From NCBI GenBank assembly GCA_051382335.1, contig JBBCAX010000024.1, positions 1 through 27,766 on the forward strand: a DNA stretch of 27,766 nt, read 5' to 3'. Source of the stretch: Deltaproteobacteria bacterium TL4 (GTDB lineage: Bacteria > SAR324 > NAC60-12). Position 1 is the stretch's first letter. Every line of letters begins with the position of its first letter. The position numbers were made by a program, and so were the translations under genes. This document shows, in pieces, positions 4,007-14,983 of this stretch. The notes below the pieces were generated by a model. That model worked only from the letters and a program-made list of their open reading frames with translations. It was not told the origin of the DNA and made no database searches.

Positions 4007-5707
4007 TTGGTTTTGTCCCTAAAGGCAAGTGTGAGTACAGCCGCTCATTGGAAAGATCAAACGCTGCACATTTACAAGGAGTTGGCGCCCTACACCTCTC
4101 CGTTTGTGCAGGATTTTAGAATCCAACTCTATCAAGCCTTGAGACGTGTCTTTTTAACGGAGGGAGGGCAGGGCGTATCCTCCCCGGCCAGTCCTTTCCA
4201 AAAGGGCTTCATTCATGCGCTTCGGTTATACGATTTGCAGGCTGTTTTGCTGCTGATTGAAAATTATGACCCTTGTCAGGGACAAGAGCGTTTTTTGTCC
4301 AATCTCAAAAAATGTTTCCATTCGCTATCGGTCATTCCCACCTTGGAAAAACTCACAACCTCAGTTCAGGAATCTCATCAGTTGACGCAATACCAAGTAA
4401 AATTGGAAAAGTCCTTAACCAGTTATTTTCAATGTGGAACGGATAAACTTTATCAAAAAAGCCTGATGAACCAGCAGCTTCGATACTTCAAAAACAACGA
4501 TCCAGACCCTTATTTACTGGAGTTGTTTTGTATCCAGCGCTTGAATTTATTGTTTTCGCCGGCATACATCGTCTATTTGATTTTAAGAAATCGATACTTT
4601 ATTACGAAACTCCTTCAAGGTTCTCAAGATCCGGCCATGGAGCTCTGGCTCAAACAAAAACTGACCGAACAGCTTCCTTCAGGGTGGGCGCAACCCCTGG
4701 ATGTTTCGCTGAAAGCCCTTGATTTTCGGTCCATAGAACAGTGGATGAAACAACTCAATGCCCTCTTTCCTCTCCATCCTCTGCTTCAGCAGGAGACAGC
4801 CTCACTCCTGGTGGATCTTGAAGAAGACCCTGACACGGACTTACAGCTTCCTGAAGAGTGCGAGCCGTCATCTCCCTTGCTGGAGTCAACCGGGCTTGTC
4901 CTTCAAAAAGCGACTTTGATTCAACCCCCTCAGGCCCTTCCCTCCCTGCCTTTGGAAACAGGTCCGGAACACCCGCTACAGCGATCTCCTTTTGAGCGTC
5001 TCTGTTTCCAATACGCTAAAGAACTCCTTTATTACTCCAGGAGTATTGTGTTTGTTTCGGAGTGTTCTTCTCCTTACTTCAGAGCAAAAAGTGAAGAATA
5101 TCTTTCGAGTGTTCCACAAGAATTTGAAACTTTTTTTGGAAACAGGTTGCCTCTCTATGAGGCGTACAATGAGTTTGTCCGTGTGCTGCTGATCCAAACA
5201 CAAAGAGACAATCCTTTTGATATCCGCAGGGAACAAATTCCCCTCTACCTGAAAACGGAGGGACAATGGCAGAAATCGGGGCTTACGCAGCGAAACAGGG
5301 AGTGGAGTTTGATGTTGGGGGCCAAGCTTCCGTTCAGCATCACTTTAAGTCATCCTGCTCAACAGCGTTTACGGATTGAAAAAGGCTGGAAATTTGTTTT
5401 ACAATTAGGCAATGCTTGTTTTGATTATGATTTACCAAAATACCAACGGATTCACACTCAGGCGGCAGGGTATTTAAAGCTACTGTTTCAAGGCAGACGC
5501 TTAAGTCCCCATTCTTCCGTTGTTTACATTGGCAGAACCCCTTATTACACACTCACGCAATCCCAGATGCTTCAAGGTCAGGGAATGATTTTACTATTTC
5601 TGATTGCCATACGGAATCGCTTTGAAGTTGATTTTTCAGAACCTTTTAAATCCTATCTTGTTGAAGTGTTGCCTCAAACCCTTGACGAGATCCGGACCCT
5701 CAATTAA
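4007..5707 (+). CDS. Hypothetical protein (566 aa)
   Basis: Long ORF starting 2 nt after the tex stop, co-oriented. No recognised motif; the TTG start is uncertain. Confidence 0.75.
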   Translation: MVLSLKASVSTAAHWKDQTLHIYKELAPYTSPFVQDFRIQLYQALRRVFLTEGGQGVSSPASPFQKGFIHALRLYDLQAVLLLIENYDPCQGQERFLSNLKKCFHSLSVIPTLEKLTTSVQESHQLTQYQVKLEKSLTSYFQCGTDKLYQKSLMNQQLRYFKNNDPDPYLLELFCIQRLNLLFSPAYIVYLILRNRYFITKLLQGSQDPAMELWLKQKLTEQLPSGWAQPLDVSLKALDFRSIEQWMKQLNALFPLHPLLQQETASLLVDLEEDPDTDLQLPEECEPSSPLLESTGLVLQKATLIQPPQALPSLPLETGPEHPLQRSPFERLCFQYAKELLYYSRSIVFVSECSSPYFRAKSEEYLSSVPQEFETFFGNRLPLYEAYNEFVRVLLIQTQRDNPFDIRREQIPLYLKTEGQWQKSGLTQRNREWSLMLGAKLPFSITLSHPAQQRLRIEKGWKFVLQLGNACFDYDLPKYQRIHTQAAGYLKLLFQGRRLSPHSSVVYIGRTPYYTLTQSQMLQGQGMILLFLIAIRNRFEVDFSEPFKSYLVEVLPQTLDEIRTLN

Positions 5708-6177: not shown

Positions 6178-6327
6178 GGCTATTGGCCTAAGACGGGACA
6201 GTCATCATTTCAGTAGGTTGGGTAGAGCGTAGCGAAACCCAACATCTAGGTAGTGATGTCCGTTTTTCGTTGGGTTTCGCTACGCTCTACCCAACCTACG
6301 TTTTTGTCCCGCTTTAGACCGGTAGCC
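6178..6327. mobile_element. MITE family B (GGC-ended, 8-bp target duplication, IS1595-like) with a nested REP doublet
   Basis: Imperfect 23-bp TIRs GGCTATTGGCCTAAGACGGGACA (6178-6200) / TGTCCCGCTTTAGACCGGTAGCC (6305-6327). Flanks TTCATCCA (6170-6177) and TTCATTCA (6328-6335) match at 7/8. Confidence 0.7.
6213..6299. repeat. GTAG-type REP inverted doublet (REPIN-like)
   Basis: Perfect 31-bp inverted arms GTAGGTTGGGTAGAGCGTAGCGAAACCCAAC (6213-6243 and 6269-6299). Each arm starts with GTAG and carries its own GTTGGG...CCCAAC hairpin. Confidence 0.92.
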
Positions 6328-6370: not shown

Positions 6371-7435
6371 ATGAATAAACCCTTAAAAAAGTTGATTGCC
6401 CGGATCCATCCTGACAAGTTTCAAAACTTTCCCTCGTTTCAGCAAATCAATCAGGATTCTTTACAAAAACTCCTCAAATTCTGGGAGCTTTCCCATGAAC
6501 CCGGGAGTTTGGCCCGTCCCCACATCATGGACCTCCGCTTTTACTATCAAACCGAGGAAGATTTGTTTGAAAAATTGGATTATACGCTGGAGATTCGAGG
6601 TCCCCTCCTTTATAGCCCGGAACTCAGGGAACTGTATGCCGACTATTGTGTGGCTTCCATGAGGTATCAATGTGGGGACTTGTCCAAAGAACCTCAATTG
6701 CCCGAAGAATTATTAAATTCTCATCACTTCGCGGTTCCTCATGAGGTGGCTGTTTACCCGGAAGTCGCAGGGGCAACAGTCCCCGCCTTACAGCACCAAT
6801 TGCAGCAAAAACTGGGTTGCCGGATCACCCTCAATCCTCGAATGTCAGAAGAGCGAATGGAAGCGTCAATGAGAAGGCTCATGCACTATGCGGGATATTT
6901 TCAACACCTGGACCTTGCCAGCGTTGAACTTGGTTTTGGAAGTCAATATCAAGTGGCGTCTCCCAACAAATGCCTGATTCCTGGTGATTTCAACATCAAT
7001 GAATGCTTGCATTTCATTGAAGCTCATTTTCCCCGTTCGACCAAATCGTTGCTGGTTCAAATACGGCATCTCAGTGAACAACTTCGCGGTACTCGTGATT
7101 TTCGCGAAATAGCAGGGGCTCAAGCCTGTTCGGTGACTCAGGTATTTCTAGGTTTGGGCCGTCTCAACCTTTATCGTAAGAAGTTGAAACCCTTCAACTT
7201 GTCCAAAATTTTTTTAATGATTGGGCAGGAATTCTATGTTGCCGGGCACATGTACTATATCCCTTATGATTTTGACATCTCGGAGTTGAGAGCGCACTTC
7301 ACCTTGCATCTTAAAGAAATCCTCCGAAAACAAAAAGACAAAGAGGAACCGCCTCTTCACTTGTCGACTCAATTATGCTTTCCTTTTGCCGCAAACTACG
7401 AGGAATGGCTTCAACATGAATTTCCGCTGGTCTAA
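6371..7435 (+). CDS. HPD-motif (J-domain-like) protein resembling DUF4460/TCAIM
   Basis: N-terminus LKKLIARIHPDKFQNFPSFQQINQDSLQKL...LRFY. Two C-terminal repeats end in ...CLIPGDFN and ...YYIPYDFD. Confidence 0.7.
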   Translation: MNKPLKKLIARIHPDKFQNFPSFQQINQDSLQKLLKFWELSHEPGSLARPHIMDLRFYYQTEEDLFEKLDYTLEIRGPLLYSPELRELYADYCVASMRYQCGDLSKEPQLPEELLNSHHFAVPHEVAVYPEVAGATVPALQHQLQQKLGCRITLNPRMSEERMEASMRRLMHYAGYFQHLDLASVELGFGSQYQVASPNKCLIPGDFNINECLHFIEAHFPRSTKSLLVQIRHLSEQLRGTRDFREIAGAQACSVTQVFLGLGRLNLYRKKLKPFNLSKIFLMIGQEFYVAGHMYYIPYDFDISELRAHFTLHLKEILRKQKDKEEPPLHLSTQLCFPFAANYEEWLQHEFPLV

Positions 7436-7438
7436 GTA

Positions 7439-8794
7439 CTAAAGGATTTTCCTGCGGCCTCCGTCTTCAGCTTGTTTCCGGAATTCTTCTTTCTTCTTTT
7501 CCGCCTCATCCCACTCTTGCTTGTCGGCGTCAAGTTTGTTTGACTCTTGAAGGACAAAAGATCGTATTTTCTCGCCTTTGGGGGAAGTTCCTAATTTGAC
7601 AACACACTGTTTCATTAACTCAACTACGGTGCTCTTTTGTTCAAAAACAGGTTTCGAATTCCGTTCTTTTCCCAGTAACAATAAGGAATCCTGTAGACGG
7701 AAAGCGGCTTCAGCAAATTTTCCCATTTCCGCATAATTTTTTCCAATAATCACCAAAATCTCGGATCGTTTCATGCGATTTTTTTCTGCGGGAAAAAATT
7801 TCAGTGCGATCTCATAATGACCCACCGCAAGTTGTTGGAGTTCGGTAAATTGTTTTTTGATCGTCATTTTATTCACAGGCCCACTTAAGGGCGTGATAGG
7901 AGTGCGGTGTTTATAGAGAATCTCGGCATCTCGATTATAGCGGAACAGGAAGTTTTGAAAAATCTGTCCATTTTTGAATTCGCCGTTAAAGGAATAGATA
8001 TCTTTAAGCATATCTCCAATGTTCAAATGGAGCACACATATTTTTTCACTATTTTGAGGTGTCATCGGCTTTTTTGCATGAAAGTAGTCCAGCATTTTTT
8101 CGTAGTGAAATAAAGAATCCGCGTAACATTTTTGTTTCAAGTACAAAGAGGCCAGCCGATTACGGACATTGATGGTTGGTAGCTTTTCTTTAAGCGCGCG
8201 TTGCATCGCGACATTTTGGTTGAAAATTTCTTTTTCCCGACTCATGTGATGCACAAAAGCCTTGGGCATTCTGGCCATGACCTGGAGAATCATGAAGGAG
8301 GCCATATTATCCACACCATTGTCACTGTATTGAATGCCCATACGCAGACAATCTATCGCTTTGAACAGCAAAACGACCTGAGTTCCCATCGATTGTCCTG
8401 GTTCTCTTGATTGTTCAATCAGCATCGACGCGATGACCTTAAGGTGGGTATACGCCTCTTTGGGACCTCTTTTGATGTAATGTCGGAGGTGTTGGTCCAA
8501 GGCTTCTTCGGTGATTTTGTTTTGTTTGATCATCGCCTGGAACTGTTCCAGGGTGATTCTAAGTTTTCCATAAACGATGATATCGATCATTTTAAAGAAA
8601 ACGCCCATTTCCCGTTCTTCCCGTTCCGTGGATTCTCTACTGATAAAAAAACGCGTTTCATTTTTAAACTTCTCGGGCAGTTCGAGTCTGGCAATGTCGC
8701 CCCCCCCTTTCCCCTTATCCTCCTCTTTTTTAATACCTTTTGCTGCACCTTTACGAGGCGGAGTTGCCTGAGGTTCTTTATTTTCTTTTGCCAC
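7439..8794 (-). CDS. Hypothetical helical-repeat (TPR-like) protein
   Basis: 451-aa ORF with a GTG start after GAAAGG. TPR-like helices include RLASLYLKQKCYADSLFHYEKML and IIGKNYAEMGKFAEAAFRLQDSL. Confidence 0.75.
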   Translation of the reverse strand: MAKENKEPQATPPRKGAAKGIKKEEDKGKGGGDIARLELPEKFKNETRFFISRESTEREEREMGVFFKMIDIIVYGKLRITLEQFQAMIKQNKITEEALDQHLRHYIKRGPKEAYTHLKVIASMLIEQSREPGQSMGTQVVLLFKAIDCLRMGIQYSDNGVDNMASFMILQVMARMPKAFVHHMSREKEIFNQNVAMQRALKEKLPTINVRNRLASLYLKQKCYADSLFHYEKMLDYFHAKKPMTPQNSEKICVLHLNIGDMLKDIYSFNGEFKNGQIFQNFLFRYNRDAEILYKHRTPITPLSGPVNKMTIKKQFTELQQLAVGHYEIALKFFPAEKNRMKRSEILVIIGKNYAEMGKFAEAAFRLQDSLLLLGKERNSKPVFEQKSTVVELMKQCVVKLGTSPKGEKIRSFVLQESNKLDADKQEWDEAEKKKEEFRKQAEDGGRRKIL

Positions 8795-8929
8795 AGAAAC
8801 CTTTCGTTTTTGAATTTTGCGCAGAGTTTAGGCGTTAGACAAGGAAATACAGACAGCAAAAACAGGGACAGCAATTTTTATTCCTAAAAGAGGCCATCAT
8901 AGTCATTATTGAAGCTCAAGACGTTTAGC

Positions 8930-9201
8930 TTAGCGTTCATATATAAAATCCATCTCAAACTGGTTAAAAAAATGATGGAGTAACGGATGCCATATGAAAG
9001 GATCAGGTTCCAGGTTTCGTTCCGAGACATAGGTTAAGCTGTTCAGCATGATGGACCAGAATATGATACCAGGGGTGATTTCTGGGCGGATTCCCTCTGT
9101 TTCCATGACATCTCCCTGCCTAAGAACTGATGGCACACTGTCCCGTGCTTGAGTATAAGGGAATGTGGAGACGAACTCAAGTTGGGACTGGATTCTTTCA
9201 T
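8930..9201 (-). pseudogene. hspQ: Degraded hspQ (YccV-like heat shock protein)
   Basis: One minus-strand frame gives PPRNHPWYHILVHHAEQL. After a frameshift near 9035, another frame gives TYVSERNLEPDP..HPLLHHFFNQF. Together they match the HspQ signature 'P.KDQPWYHVLV....TYVAERNLE.D...HP.L..FF..F'. The 5' limit is approximate. Confidence 0.75.
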
Positions 9202-9238
9202 AAAATTTTGACAAGAAGCACTTAAGGAACCTGGACAC

Positions 9239-9430
9239 ATAGATGTTCATTTAAATATATTCAGAAAACTCATCCTGTCGCGTGATCCGTTTAAACAACG
9301 CTGTTTCAGGAGTGCCAAAGCTTGCTTTGGCCAGAAAGGCGAAGGCCTTTCTTTGGCTTTGGCCAAAGCAAGCTTTGGCACTCCACAGTCCAGGTTAGAC
9401 TCAAATGAATTTATTTAAATGAACGTCTAT
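9239..9430. mobile_element. MITE family A, copy 2 (inverted relative to copy 1)
   Basis: 9238-9433 is the reverse complement of 400-595 with 8 substitutions in 196 nt (hand count). The inner GGAG palindrome at 9309-9384 has perfect 25-bp arms. Confidence 0.88.
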
Positions 9431-9480
9431 AGAGGTATTCAGTGACGTTACCAAGGCTTTATCCTGGGTGGATTATTTTT

Positions 9481-9520
9481 ATCTGCGTTTATCTGCGAAA
9501 AACTGCGGCTGAATCGTTAC
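9481..9520 (-). repeat. Isolated IS66-like (GTAAC) MITE end
   Basis: Reverse complement GTAACGATTCAGCCGCAGTTTTTCGCAGATAAACGCAGAT matches 23530-23569 at 34/40. Confidence 0.6.
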
Positions 9521-12543: not shown

Positions 12544-12713
12544 AAAAGACAAAAAACACGAAATAGAACTTAAATTGTCTTTACGCCTCTGTTGAAATGA
12601 GGTACGGAAAGCGGATAGCCTTAAAAAGGTTTCAAAACGTAGCTGGATTGATTCCAACTCATTGTTGGACGGTGGGTCCGTAAGCTGAAATGTTAACGTT
12701 TAAGGAGGTAGCG

Positions 12714-12944
12714 ATGTTTAAAACACTCTCATTGGCAAAAATGGCTTCTACCGCTGAAGAGCTTTCTTCTCAAGCGCAACAACTCCAGGATACGATTTCT
12801 TTCTTTAACGTTGGAATGAATGAGGGGCAGGTTACTGTCCTCATTCTTGATATGGACAAAGTTTTCTCTGTGAAGGAGCTTTCAATGGTCCAGAACGTAA
12901 ACGCAAGTGCGGTCGCCCCTGTAAGTAAGGATCATCCATTATGA
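12714..12944 (+). pseudogene. Chimeric remnant: MCP N-terminus + MCP C-terminus + CheW C-terminus
   Basis: AAGGAGG ribosome-binding site, then MFKTLSLAK (MCP-like start), MASTAEELSSQAQQLQDTISFF (typical MCP tail) and LILDMDKVFSVKELS, which parallels IAILDVNTIFSLEELT in the CheW at 21654. Confidence 0.65.
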
Positions 12945-14983
12945 ACAACCCTCTTTTGGAAATGAAGGATTTACCTCCCTTTGAGCAAATTCTTCCGCAA
13001 CATATGGAAGAGGCCATCACAACCGGCATCAACAGCAATTTACAAGAAATCGAATCCTTGTTGAAGCAATCGGTTCCTTACACTTGGGACAATTTGGTGT
13101 TGCCCCTGGAGACTCTGGATAATCGTTTGAACCGGATTTGGTCTCCCATCGGACATTTGAATGCGGTGATGAATTCTGACGAAATGCGTCAAGCGTACAA
13201 TGCGTGTTTGACTAAAATCTCTGAATATTCGACATTTATGGGACAGCACTATGAATTGTACCAGGCGTTCAAAAGTATTGCGGACGGAGCGGAATACCAC
13301 AAATTGACGGCTCCTCAACAAAAAATCATAGAGAACACCCTCAGAGATTTCAAACGGTCAGGCGTTGCGTTGCCTGAAGAACAAAAGCTGCGATATAAGG
13401 ACATTAAAAAACGGGTGACTGAACTTTCCTCCAAATTCAGTGAGAACGTTTTGGATGCGACGATGGCTTGGACAAAACATATTCTGGACCCAAAGGAATT
13501 AAAAGGGTTGCCTGAAACAGCACTGGAAACGGCAAAAGAGACGGCACGGCAAAAAGGCTTGGAAGGCTATCTTCTGACCTTGGAGCCTCCCTGTTTTACC
13601 GTGGTGATAACGTATGCGGATGATCGAAAGCTTCGGCAGGAAATCTATAAAGCTTACATCACCCGTGCTTCGGATCAAGGTCCCCATGCCGGTCAATGGG
13701 ACAATACAAAAATCATGGAGGAACTGCTACAGTTGCGACACGAATTAGCTCAGCTCCTGGGGCATGCCAATTATGCGGAACATTCTCTGGTTACCAAAAT
13801 GGCAGAAAATCCGGATCAGGTGATTTGTTTTCTCAAGGACTTGGTCGAGCGCTCAAAAGCCGCGGGCTTAAGAGAATATCAAGAGCTTCAAAACTACGCG
13901 AAAAAACACTATCAACAGGAATCTCTCGCGGCATGGGACTTGAGCTATTACTCCGAAAAACTCAAGCAGCACCAATATTCTATTTCCCAAGAAGAACTTC
14001 GTCCGTTTTTTCCTGAAGATACGGTGTTGGCAGGAATGTTTGAGGTCGTGAAGCGTTTATTTGGGGTACACGTCCAAGAGAAAAAAACGGTTCCCGTCTG
14101 GCATGAAAATGTCCGTTTTTTTGAATTATTTGATGAAGCCGGAATTCTTCGAGGAAGTTTTTATCTCGACTTGTATGCTCGACCTCATAAGCGGGGGGGC
14201 GCCTGGATGGATGAATGCCGTGTGCGTTTCCTGAACGCGCAAGGACAGTTACAAACGCCCGTCGCTTATTTGGTCTGTAATCTGAATAAACCTGTAGGTG
14301 GCAAGCCTGCTCTCTTCACACATCAAGAGACTCTCGTTTTGTTTCATGAATTTGGACATGGGTTACATCATCTCTTAACCTTAATGGATTATCCGAGTAT
14401 TGCCGGTATCAACGGTGTTGCCTGGGATGCGGTAGAGCTTCCCAGTCAGTTTTTAGAAAACTGGGTTTGGCAAAAAGAAGCGCTTGATTTCATCTCCGGA
14501 CATTATAAAACAGGGGCAGCTTTGTCCACAGAGGTTCTGAATCAGCTCCTCAATGCAAAAAACTTTCAATCCGGACTCCAAATGCTTCGACAATTGGAGT
14601 TCAGTTTGTTTGATTTTCTACTGCATCAAAATTTCCAACCCGAACGGGGCGCCCGTATTCAGGAAGTCTTAAATGAAGTCAGGGATGCCGTTTCTGTGGT
14701 GAAATCTCCTGAATTTAATCGTTTTCAACATGGCTTTACCCATATTTTTGCAGGGGGTTATGCCGCGGGCTATTATGGCTATAAATGGGCAGAGGTCCTG
14801 TCAAGTGACGCGTTTTCCCGGTTTGAGAAAGAAGGAATTTTTAATAGACAAACGGGTTTGGATTTTCTACATACTATACTGGAACAAGGGGGTTCGAAAA
14901 ACGCCATAGAGTTGTTTGAAGCGTTCCGTGGACGTCCTCAGAGTATTGAAGCTCTTTTGAAACATTGCGGAATTGAATCTTGA
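12941..14983 (+). CDS. prlC: Oligopeptidase A (M3A metallopeptidase)
   Basis: MNNPLL start, YLDLYARPHKRGGAWM, FHEFGHGLH (HExxH), WDAVELPSQFLENW, HIFAGGYAAGYYGYKWAEVL. Confidence 0.97.
   Translation: MNNPLLEMKDLPPFEQILPQHMEEAITTGINSNLQEIESLLKQSVPYTWDNLVLPLETLDNRLNRIWSPIGHLNAVMNSDEMRQAYNACLTKISEYSTFMGQHYELYQAFKSIADGAEYHKLTAPQQKIIENTLRDFKRSGVALPEEQKLRYKDIKKRVTELSSKFSENVLDATMAWTKHILDPKELKGLPETALETAKETARQKGLEGYLLTLEPPCFTVVITYADDRKLRQEIYKAYITRASDQGPHAGQWDNTKIMEELLQLRHELAQLLGHANYAEHSLVTKMAENPDQVICFLKDLVERSKAAGLREYQELQNYAKKHYQQESLAAWDLSYYSEKLKQHQYSISQEELRPFFPEDTVLAGMFEVVKRLFGVHVQEKKTVPVWHENVRFFELFDEAGILRGSFYLDLYARPHKRGGAWMDECRVRFLNAQGQLQTPVAYLVCNLNKPVGGKPALFTHQETLVLFHEFGHGLHHLLTLMDYPSIAGINGVAWDAVELPSQFLENWVWQKEALDFISGHYKTGAALSTEVLNQLLNAKNFQSGLQMLRQLEFSLFDFLLHQNFQPERGARIQEVLNEVRDAVSVVKSPEFNRFQHGFTHIFAGGYAAGYYGYKWAEVLSSDAFSRFEKEGIFNRQTGLDFLHTILEQGGSKNAIELFEAFRGRPQSIEALLKHCGIES

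Follow-up and report, generated by a model that had tools for sequence, protein, structure and literature searches.

An intact, rare bacterial variant of the mitochondrial TCAIM/mt-SAF6 family and its likely role as a client-specific DnaK co-chaperone

The TCAIM/mt-SAF6 family has so far been described from mitochondria, through human TCAIM and trypanosome mt-SAF6. Evidence that TCAIM works as a co-chaperone, with a folded metabolic enzyme as its target, is recent; reviews (PMC13311838, PMC13149161, PMC13601606) place it among the type III DNAJC proteins and report that its β-repeats bind OGDH in the folded state and that it acts via HSPA9. The trypanosome relative has come to notice through ribosome assembly: mt-SAF6 of Trypanosoma brucei (6SGA chain F6; named in PMC8784144) is a 676-aa component of small-subunit assembly intermediates. 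In the literature searched, TCAIM and mt-SAF6 are apparently not linked with each other. A full-text search on DUF4460, DUF4461, PF14687, and PF14688 returned no paper, and no bacterial member is mentioned in the titles and abstracts on TCAIM, DUF4460, the LONP1 link, or mt-SAF6 among those listed (the primary TCAIM paper lies outside this search and may discuss conservation). Term searches of the available text of PMC12699882, PMC10325924, PMC13759221, and bioRxiv 2021.04.20.440500 likewise gave nothing relevant.

The gene examined here lies in a window of 27,766 nucleotides, the whole analyzed stretch of contig JBBCAX010000024.1 from Deltaproteobacteria bacterium TL4, and its features are collected in Table 1. 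It is intact, rarely found in bacteria, and a member of the TCAIM/mt-SAF6 family, and we think it likely that its product acts as a client-specific DnaK co-chaperone; it is classed as a variant because it departs from the usual three-repeat architecture. New relative to the known members are the bacterial host, the two repeats, and a conserved tail resembling a clamp motif. Like human TCAIM (PDB 8I0K chain C), the protein combines an HPD-bearing DUF4460 domain with α/β repeats and a predicted Hsp70 docking. Unlike the mitochondrial human protein, it has no presequence and two repeats rather than three, and where human TCAIM has a third repeat ending in IPW, the bacterial two-repeat protein has a QL[SC]FxFA tail; OGDH, the human client, was not found in three bacterial carriers. 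The best match in both sequence and structure is mt-SAF6, although the bacterial gene shows no ribosome link, and chain E3 of 6YXX, a mitoribosome assembly intermediate, has DUF4461-type repeats like those of the bacterial protein.

Table 1. Coordinates of the TCAIM-like gene, its parts, and the adjoining repeat within the window
Feature	Position	Strand	Residues or length	Remarks
TCAIM/mt-SAF6-family gene (DUF4460 + DUF4461-type repeat)	6371..7435	+	354 aa	
Shortened J-like domain	6371..6679	+	residues 1-103	AF2 pLDDT 95.6
HPD motif (His13-Pro14-Asp15)	6407..6415	+	residues 13-15	conserved; touches DnaK in model
α/β repeat 1	6776..7030	+	residues ~136-220	ends IPGDF (203-207); repeat HMM E 4e-13; best match R1 model
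α/β repeat 2	7058..7315	+	residues ~230-315	ends IPYDF (297-301); repeat HMM E 5e-10; best match R2 model
QLCFPF	7370..7387	+	residues 334-339	conserved short motif, resembles hexameric β-clamp-binding motif, Phe at position 4
Palindromic REP/MITE-like repeat	6178..6327	.	~150 bp	31-bp inverted arms; directly upstream of TCAIM-like gene

An earlier note, made from the letters of the window, had proposed a relationship to TCAIM through DUF4460 and DUF4461. The first of these is confirmed by profile search: PF14687 covers residues 3-63 and scores 38 bits against a cut-off of 25.5 (E 1.9e-9). For the second, PF14688 gives no match at E<=1 on the protein itself but scores above its cut-off in homologues. 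A phmmer search over 1.84 billion representatives returned 12 matches at E<=0.001, the query among them, and of the 11 homologues, seven stand above the cut-off for DUF4460, seven for DUF4461, and five for both. Profile A1, built from eight phmmer sequences including the query (alignment A2 is narrower), found trypanosome mt-SAF6 in the PDB at E 4.7e-29, over the J-like domain and the repeats, and human TCAIM (8i0k_C) at E 3.5e-6. With a eukaryote-only profile of 19 sequences, the TCAIM-like ORF came first of 30,125 six-frame ORFs of the genome (E 2.5e-8; next best 1.1), and it is the most diverged of the bacterial-type group from the eukaryotic profile. The structural expectation also held: for the full-length AF2 model (pLDDT 79.7, pTM 0.52), the first five places in Foldseek go to chains of mt-SAF6, to 6yxx_E3, and to TCAIM, and VIA-align gives Z 10.4, 8.9, and 7.9 for mt-SAF6, 6yxx_E3, and TCAIM, respectively, with a high rmsd that likely stems from a differing domain arrangement. 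As a separate observation, the match of 6yxx_E3, which comes from a trypanosome large-subunit assembly intermediate, suggests that a second family member takes part in mitoribosome assembly. Two Atlas look-ups led to TCAIM/DUF4460 clusters that are 100% Eukaryota, which is weak evidence because recognition was below the tool's threshold, and a word-index search recovered one protein with the full protein and two with A1.

The N-terminus reads as the earlier note had it, and its proposal of an atypical, HPD-bearing J-like domain is supported by modeling. Like DnaJ, CbpA, HscB, and DjlA (PF00226), the domain has a basic helix, an HPD, and a second helix, and by prediction it engages DnaK at the surface that they use; unlike them, it lacks helix I in the model and has a β-hairpin after the helical hairpin. 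Its start thus corresponds to helix II, and the order of elements in the model is basic helix, HPD loop, long helix, β-hairpin, and helix. Taken alone, the domain aligns to mt-SAF6 with Z 9.5 and an rmsd of 2.7 Å over 99 residues. PF00226 gives no match on the protein, which is outside the genome's 10 PF00226 matches; the 50 best structural matches to the N-domain include no canonical J-domain, and by sequence the DnaJ chains match without significance (best E 0.071). The HPD is conserved in 9/9 bacterial-type sequences with the N-terminus on record (P0003, P0008, P0009, and P0011, in which this region is missing, are outside the count), and the 12 residues before it carry a net charge of +4, compared with +5 in the genome's DnaJ. 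When the N-domain was modeled together with ATP, Mg, and the DnaK of the source genome, the predicted complex reached a score of 0.72 versus 0.05 for the best of three controls, with contact agreement between runs of at least 96% and partner pLDDT of at least 88. The mark for this score is reached by 116/157 solved complexes and 2/215 mismatched pairs, in a calibration that was ligand-free and did not include the alignment of this analysis. The predicted contacts on DnaK comprise the linker (V384-L387 region), P414-K417 of SBD-β, and 208-212 of the NBD; in the model, Asp15 and His13 reach linker leucines 385-387, Pro14 reaches P414, and Lys6 reaches E212. This surface matches the NBD/linker/SBD-β site of DnaJ docking described in section 4 of PMC13254874. 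Since the pass may stem from likeness to solved DnaJ–DnaK structures, we read the docking score as support for DnaK binding rather than as a demonstration of it. The source genome encodes further Hsp70s as alternative possible partners. Separately, one Hsp70-family gene of this genome (G000:C281, in L021/L023) contains one internal TAA, adjoins a small J-domain gene, and is possibly broken or split. Nor does the HPD alone fix the role of the protein, because mt-SAF6 keeps its HPD and yet is a structural ribosome-assembly factor.

Behind this domain, the earlier note had counted two units of about 80 residues, each ending in IPxDF. The two copies stand (Z 6.8, with none of 1000 shuffles as high, compared with Z -0.4 for the N-domain as control), as do both IPxDF ends, whereas the size is larger, about 85-90 residues with a period of about 94. 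The repeat HMM was made from homologues above the PF14688 cut-off, and both repeats align structurally to TCAIM and mt-SAF6. Repeat 3 is missing from this protein and its G009-type homologue, while the other full-length bacterial-type sequences have three; the tail of the protein gives no score against the R3 model.

In the place where the third repeat would stand, the tail (residues 325-354, pLDDT <50) holds QLCFPFA. The pattern QL[SC]FxFA, which follows an unconserved linker, is found in 4/4 two-repeat-type sequences (P0001, P0002/G009, and the fragments P0003 and P0008) and in 0/9 of the three-repeat type. Within the last 30 residues, QLx[LF]xF occurs in 4 of 3,890 genome ORFs versus 4.9 in shuffles, so the evidence for the tail is conservation and not enrichment. 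The C-terminal motifs of Hda, Pol IV, and Pol III α (QLxLxF) likewise place Gln-Leu-x-hydrophobic-x-Phe in a flexible tail, but they lack the Phe that the putative clamp motif has at position 4. According to PMC11139829, this position is Leu/Met in canonical hexameric clamp motifs; the tail fits the consensus Q-aliphatic-x-[L/M]-x-[F/L] at 5/6 positions, and DinB of the same genome, whose tail is QLDFF, also has Phe at position 4. C-terminal clamp motifs can arise de novo, according to PMC4549789. From the motif, we tentatively suggest, at somewhat less than an even chance, that the tail could tether the two-repeat protein to the β sliding clamp, which, if true, would point to a DNA-associated client; our searches found no literature pairing a J-domain with a β-clamp motif. 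Two of the four QL[SC]FxFA sequences end in -FAA, which we take to allow an alternative reading of the tail as a protease degron.

The ORF runs without an internal stop and is single-copy in the source genome. An in-frame stop lies three codons 5' of its start, and the protein is therefore without a presequence. Contig GC is 0.433 against 0.434 for the genome, and the gene itself (GC 45.5%; 17th percentile by codon score and 87th by GC3) lies inside the genome's range of GC and codon use, which makes a recent transfer unlikely. Contamination or mis-binning was rejected on the family-native neighbors, the matching GC, and the orthologue in a related genus; carriage as mobile-element cargo was rejected as well, as the homologue P0004 had no match in plasmid/phage records and A2 had none in viral contigs. 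The window has no Rfam or tRNA matches, and its promoter-like sites are at chance level only. The palindromic repeat upstream of the gene occurs genome-wide, with 18 copies of at least 130 bp and at least 85% identity on 16 other contigs; it lies outside the protein, between the HIT gene and the TCAIM-like gene, and marks the junction.

A proteostasis neighborhood, which the earlier note had read from a MoxR ATPase, a TPR-like protein, and an hspQ remnant, does not survive comparison. The MoxR ATPase is firmly identified (AAA_3, E 7e-60) and the TPR-like neighbor does have a TPR match, though a weak one below the cut-off; the hspQ remnant has no such backing (E 0.09, below the cut-off, with nothing found in a genome search with the hspQ family). 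The MoxR-Tex-orf566-HIT block is kept in the relatives G008 and G009, where the TCAIM-like gene is absent from the 12-13 kb examined, homologues of the TPR-like gene lie away from the block, and carriers of different lineages have no adjoining genes in common with the window besides the TCAIM-like gene itself. Because the block is conserved without the gene, a repeat intervenes, and no neighbors recur across lineages, we regard the arrangement as coincidental. The locus is a native bacterial one, since homologues of its neighbors are spread through the family to which the genome belongs (41/45 genomes for orf 4007-5707, 10/45 for the TPR-like gene). Some features of these loci deserve mention in their own right. 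The 566-aa product of 4007-5707 has no Pfam/NCBIfam match, sits in a MoxR-(Tex)-orf566-(HIT) block, and is possibly a lineage-specific MoxR partner. The 451-aa TPR-like protein (7439-8794, minus strand) belongs to a multi-paralogue family limited to the 10/45 family genomes, and in G016, G003, and G007, a paralogue convergent to the TPR-like gene takes the place that the TCAIM-like gene has in the window. A second repeat family of about 200 bp has copies at about 9235-9433 and at 400-598 that are 95% identical, occurs on other contigs too, and extends into the beginning of the ORF that had been taken for an hspQ remnant. The short ORF at 12690-12944, which looks like the C-terminus of a methyl-accepting chemotaxis protein but has no Pfam support, is likely a remnant. 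Around the homologue at both Desulfobacterota loci, short coiled-coil membrane-anchor genes are found (L007:4933-5574, 8872-9489, and 12623-13144; L008:591-953), with a weak CCDC90-like match below the cut-off and three near-identical copies in L007.

The family is rare among bacteria. With profile A1, 2/88 genomes of the source organism's own phylum carry it, the second being G009 of a related genus, at 39% identity. Outside this phylum, the carriers are three Desulfobacterota genomes (G088, G089, and G856), all with the three-repeat form; the corresponding counts are 1/401 in the phylum of G088, 1/201 in its order, and 1/9 and 2/301 around G089, in genome samples that overlap and include many incomplete genomes. 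DUF4460 is absent from 14 control genomes, Caulobacter included (0/14). A GTDB-wide pattern scan with A2 gave two loci, in Desulfatiglandales and Desulfonatronum; in metagenomes, A2 gave eight eukaryote-type loci and P0004 gave none.

How did the family come to be in both domains? Our unrooted phylogeny (30 sequences, 436 columns, IQ-TREE with LG+C20; the fragments P0003, P0008, P0012, and P0014, the near-duplicate P0034, mt-SAF6, and human TCAIM are outside it) splits 11 bacterial-type from 19 eukaryotic rows with support 100/99. The rows tied to bacterial genomes are the query and the G009-like, Desulfatiglandales-like, and Desulfonatronum-like ones; the others are labeled bacterial from their clustering and lack of a presequence. 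We consider bacterial ancestry and transfer from eukaryotes to be about equally probable. The latter would take the form of one old eukaryote-to-bacterium transfer, from an unsampled lineage (e.g. Discoba/SAR), followed by sporadic spread among bacteria, a course of events to which we give slightly less than an even chance. The breadth of the family in eukaryotes, for which the Atlas clusters are a weak source, the very low bacterial counts given above, and the top score of mt-SAF6, a sequence outside the tree, all speak for it; the bacterial-type sequences, on the other hand, nest in no sampled eukaryotic group. The repeats also bear on the matter. Within-protein repeat pairs reach Z>=5 in 20/27 bacterial-type cases versus 0/52 eukaryotic ones, and a border-free test finds 8/10 bacterial-type proteins at Z>=4 versus 0/19 eukaryotic ones. 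Bacterial repeats so much more alike within a protein are what would be expected near the original triplication, and they argue against the transfer and fit an early form of the family kept in bacteria, although slower evolution or re-duplication would give self-similar repeats equally well and mt-SAF6, too, has repeats that match each other. In a repeat tree of 90 columns, the repeat classes are not recovered across domains, and the root of the family is not set by the repeat duplication; each eukaryotic repeat class does fall on its own side of some branch, with no bacterial rows among it, again a point against transfer, at SH-aLRT 85-89 on few columns. An AU test does not reject a group of three-repeat bacterial-type sequences from which the query lineage is excluded (p 0.20). 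That the ancestral form of these co-chaperones persists in a small number of deltaproteobacteria-like lineages is a possibility we put forward with some reserve, as rather less than an even bet. The fuller proposition, that such lineages keep the ancestral form and that the present one also swapped repeat 3 for a clamp motif, giving a J-protein that would bring DnaK to the replication clamp, is unlikely.

As to function, the protein is, in our judgment, probably a client-specific class C J-domain co-chaperone. In this role, the HPD-bearing N-terminal domain would dock on ATP-bound DnaK in the canonical J-domain position, as modeled, and the two α/β repeats would likely grip one folded client protein; by analogy with the family, the J-like domain would stimulate ATP hydrolysis by DnaK, and the client would be captured and then remodeled or handed on for proteolysis. 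Which protein serves as client probably varies within the family, and OGDH is unlikely to be a general one. A direct functional orthologue of human TCAIM would bind SucA (OGDH E1) and lower its level via DnaK and a protease. OGDH is, according to the reviews, the sole client known for the family outside trypanosomes, and SucA is encoded in 2/5 carriers, G000 and G009, which are both two-repeat carriers. Yet SucA was not found in 3/3 Desulfobacterota carriers of the three-repeat form, G088, G089, and G856 (completeness not given), SucA occurs in the relatives G008 and G016 although the TCAIM-like gene does not, repeat 3 is missing, and the gene is beside sucA in no carrier within the stretches examined, so that we hold this orthology to be distinctly improbable. 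Still less probable is a ribosome-assembly or RNP-remodeling factor like trypanosome mt-SAF6, for which occurrence in 2/88 genomes of the phylum does not fit a housekeeping role and ribosomal genes are adjacent in no carrier, despite mt-SAF6 being the best match (105 bits versus 99.7 for the best of the eukaryotic set; Z 10.4) and 6yxx_E3, a second chain from trypanosome mitoribosome assembly intermediates, sharing the repeats (Z 8.9). A decaying, non-functional transferred gene would be rare, without conserved context, next to a repeat element, and short of its third repeat, as this one is, but we give this the least chance of all, as the frames are intact in both carriers at 39% identity, the HPD and the tail motif are kept across that distance, and the model is well folded.

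If the protein is the client-specific DnaK co-chaperone that we favor, small soluble bacterial members would offer a simple system for studying how Hsp70 is driven by a shortened J-domain that the Pfam DnaJ model misses, and a way to ask what the repeats recognize in organisms that lack OGDH. The self-similarity of the bacterial repeats is relevant to the origin of the mitochondrial TCAIM/mt-SAF6 family. Should the tail indeed bind the clamp, it would connect DnaK directly with the replisome.
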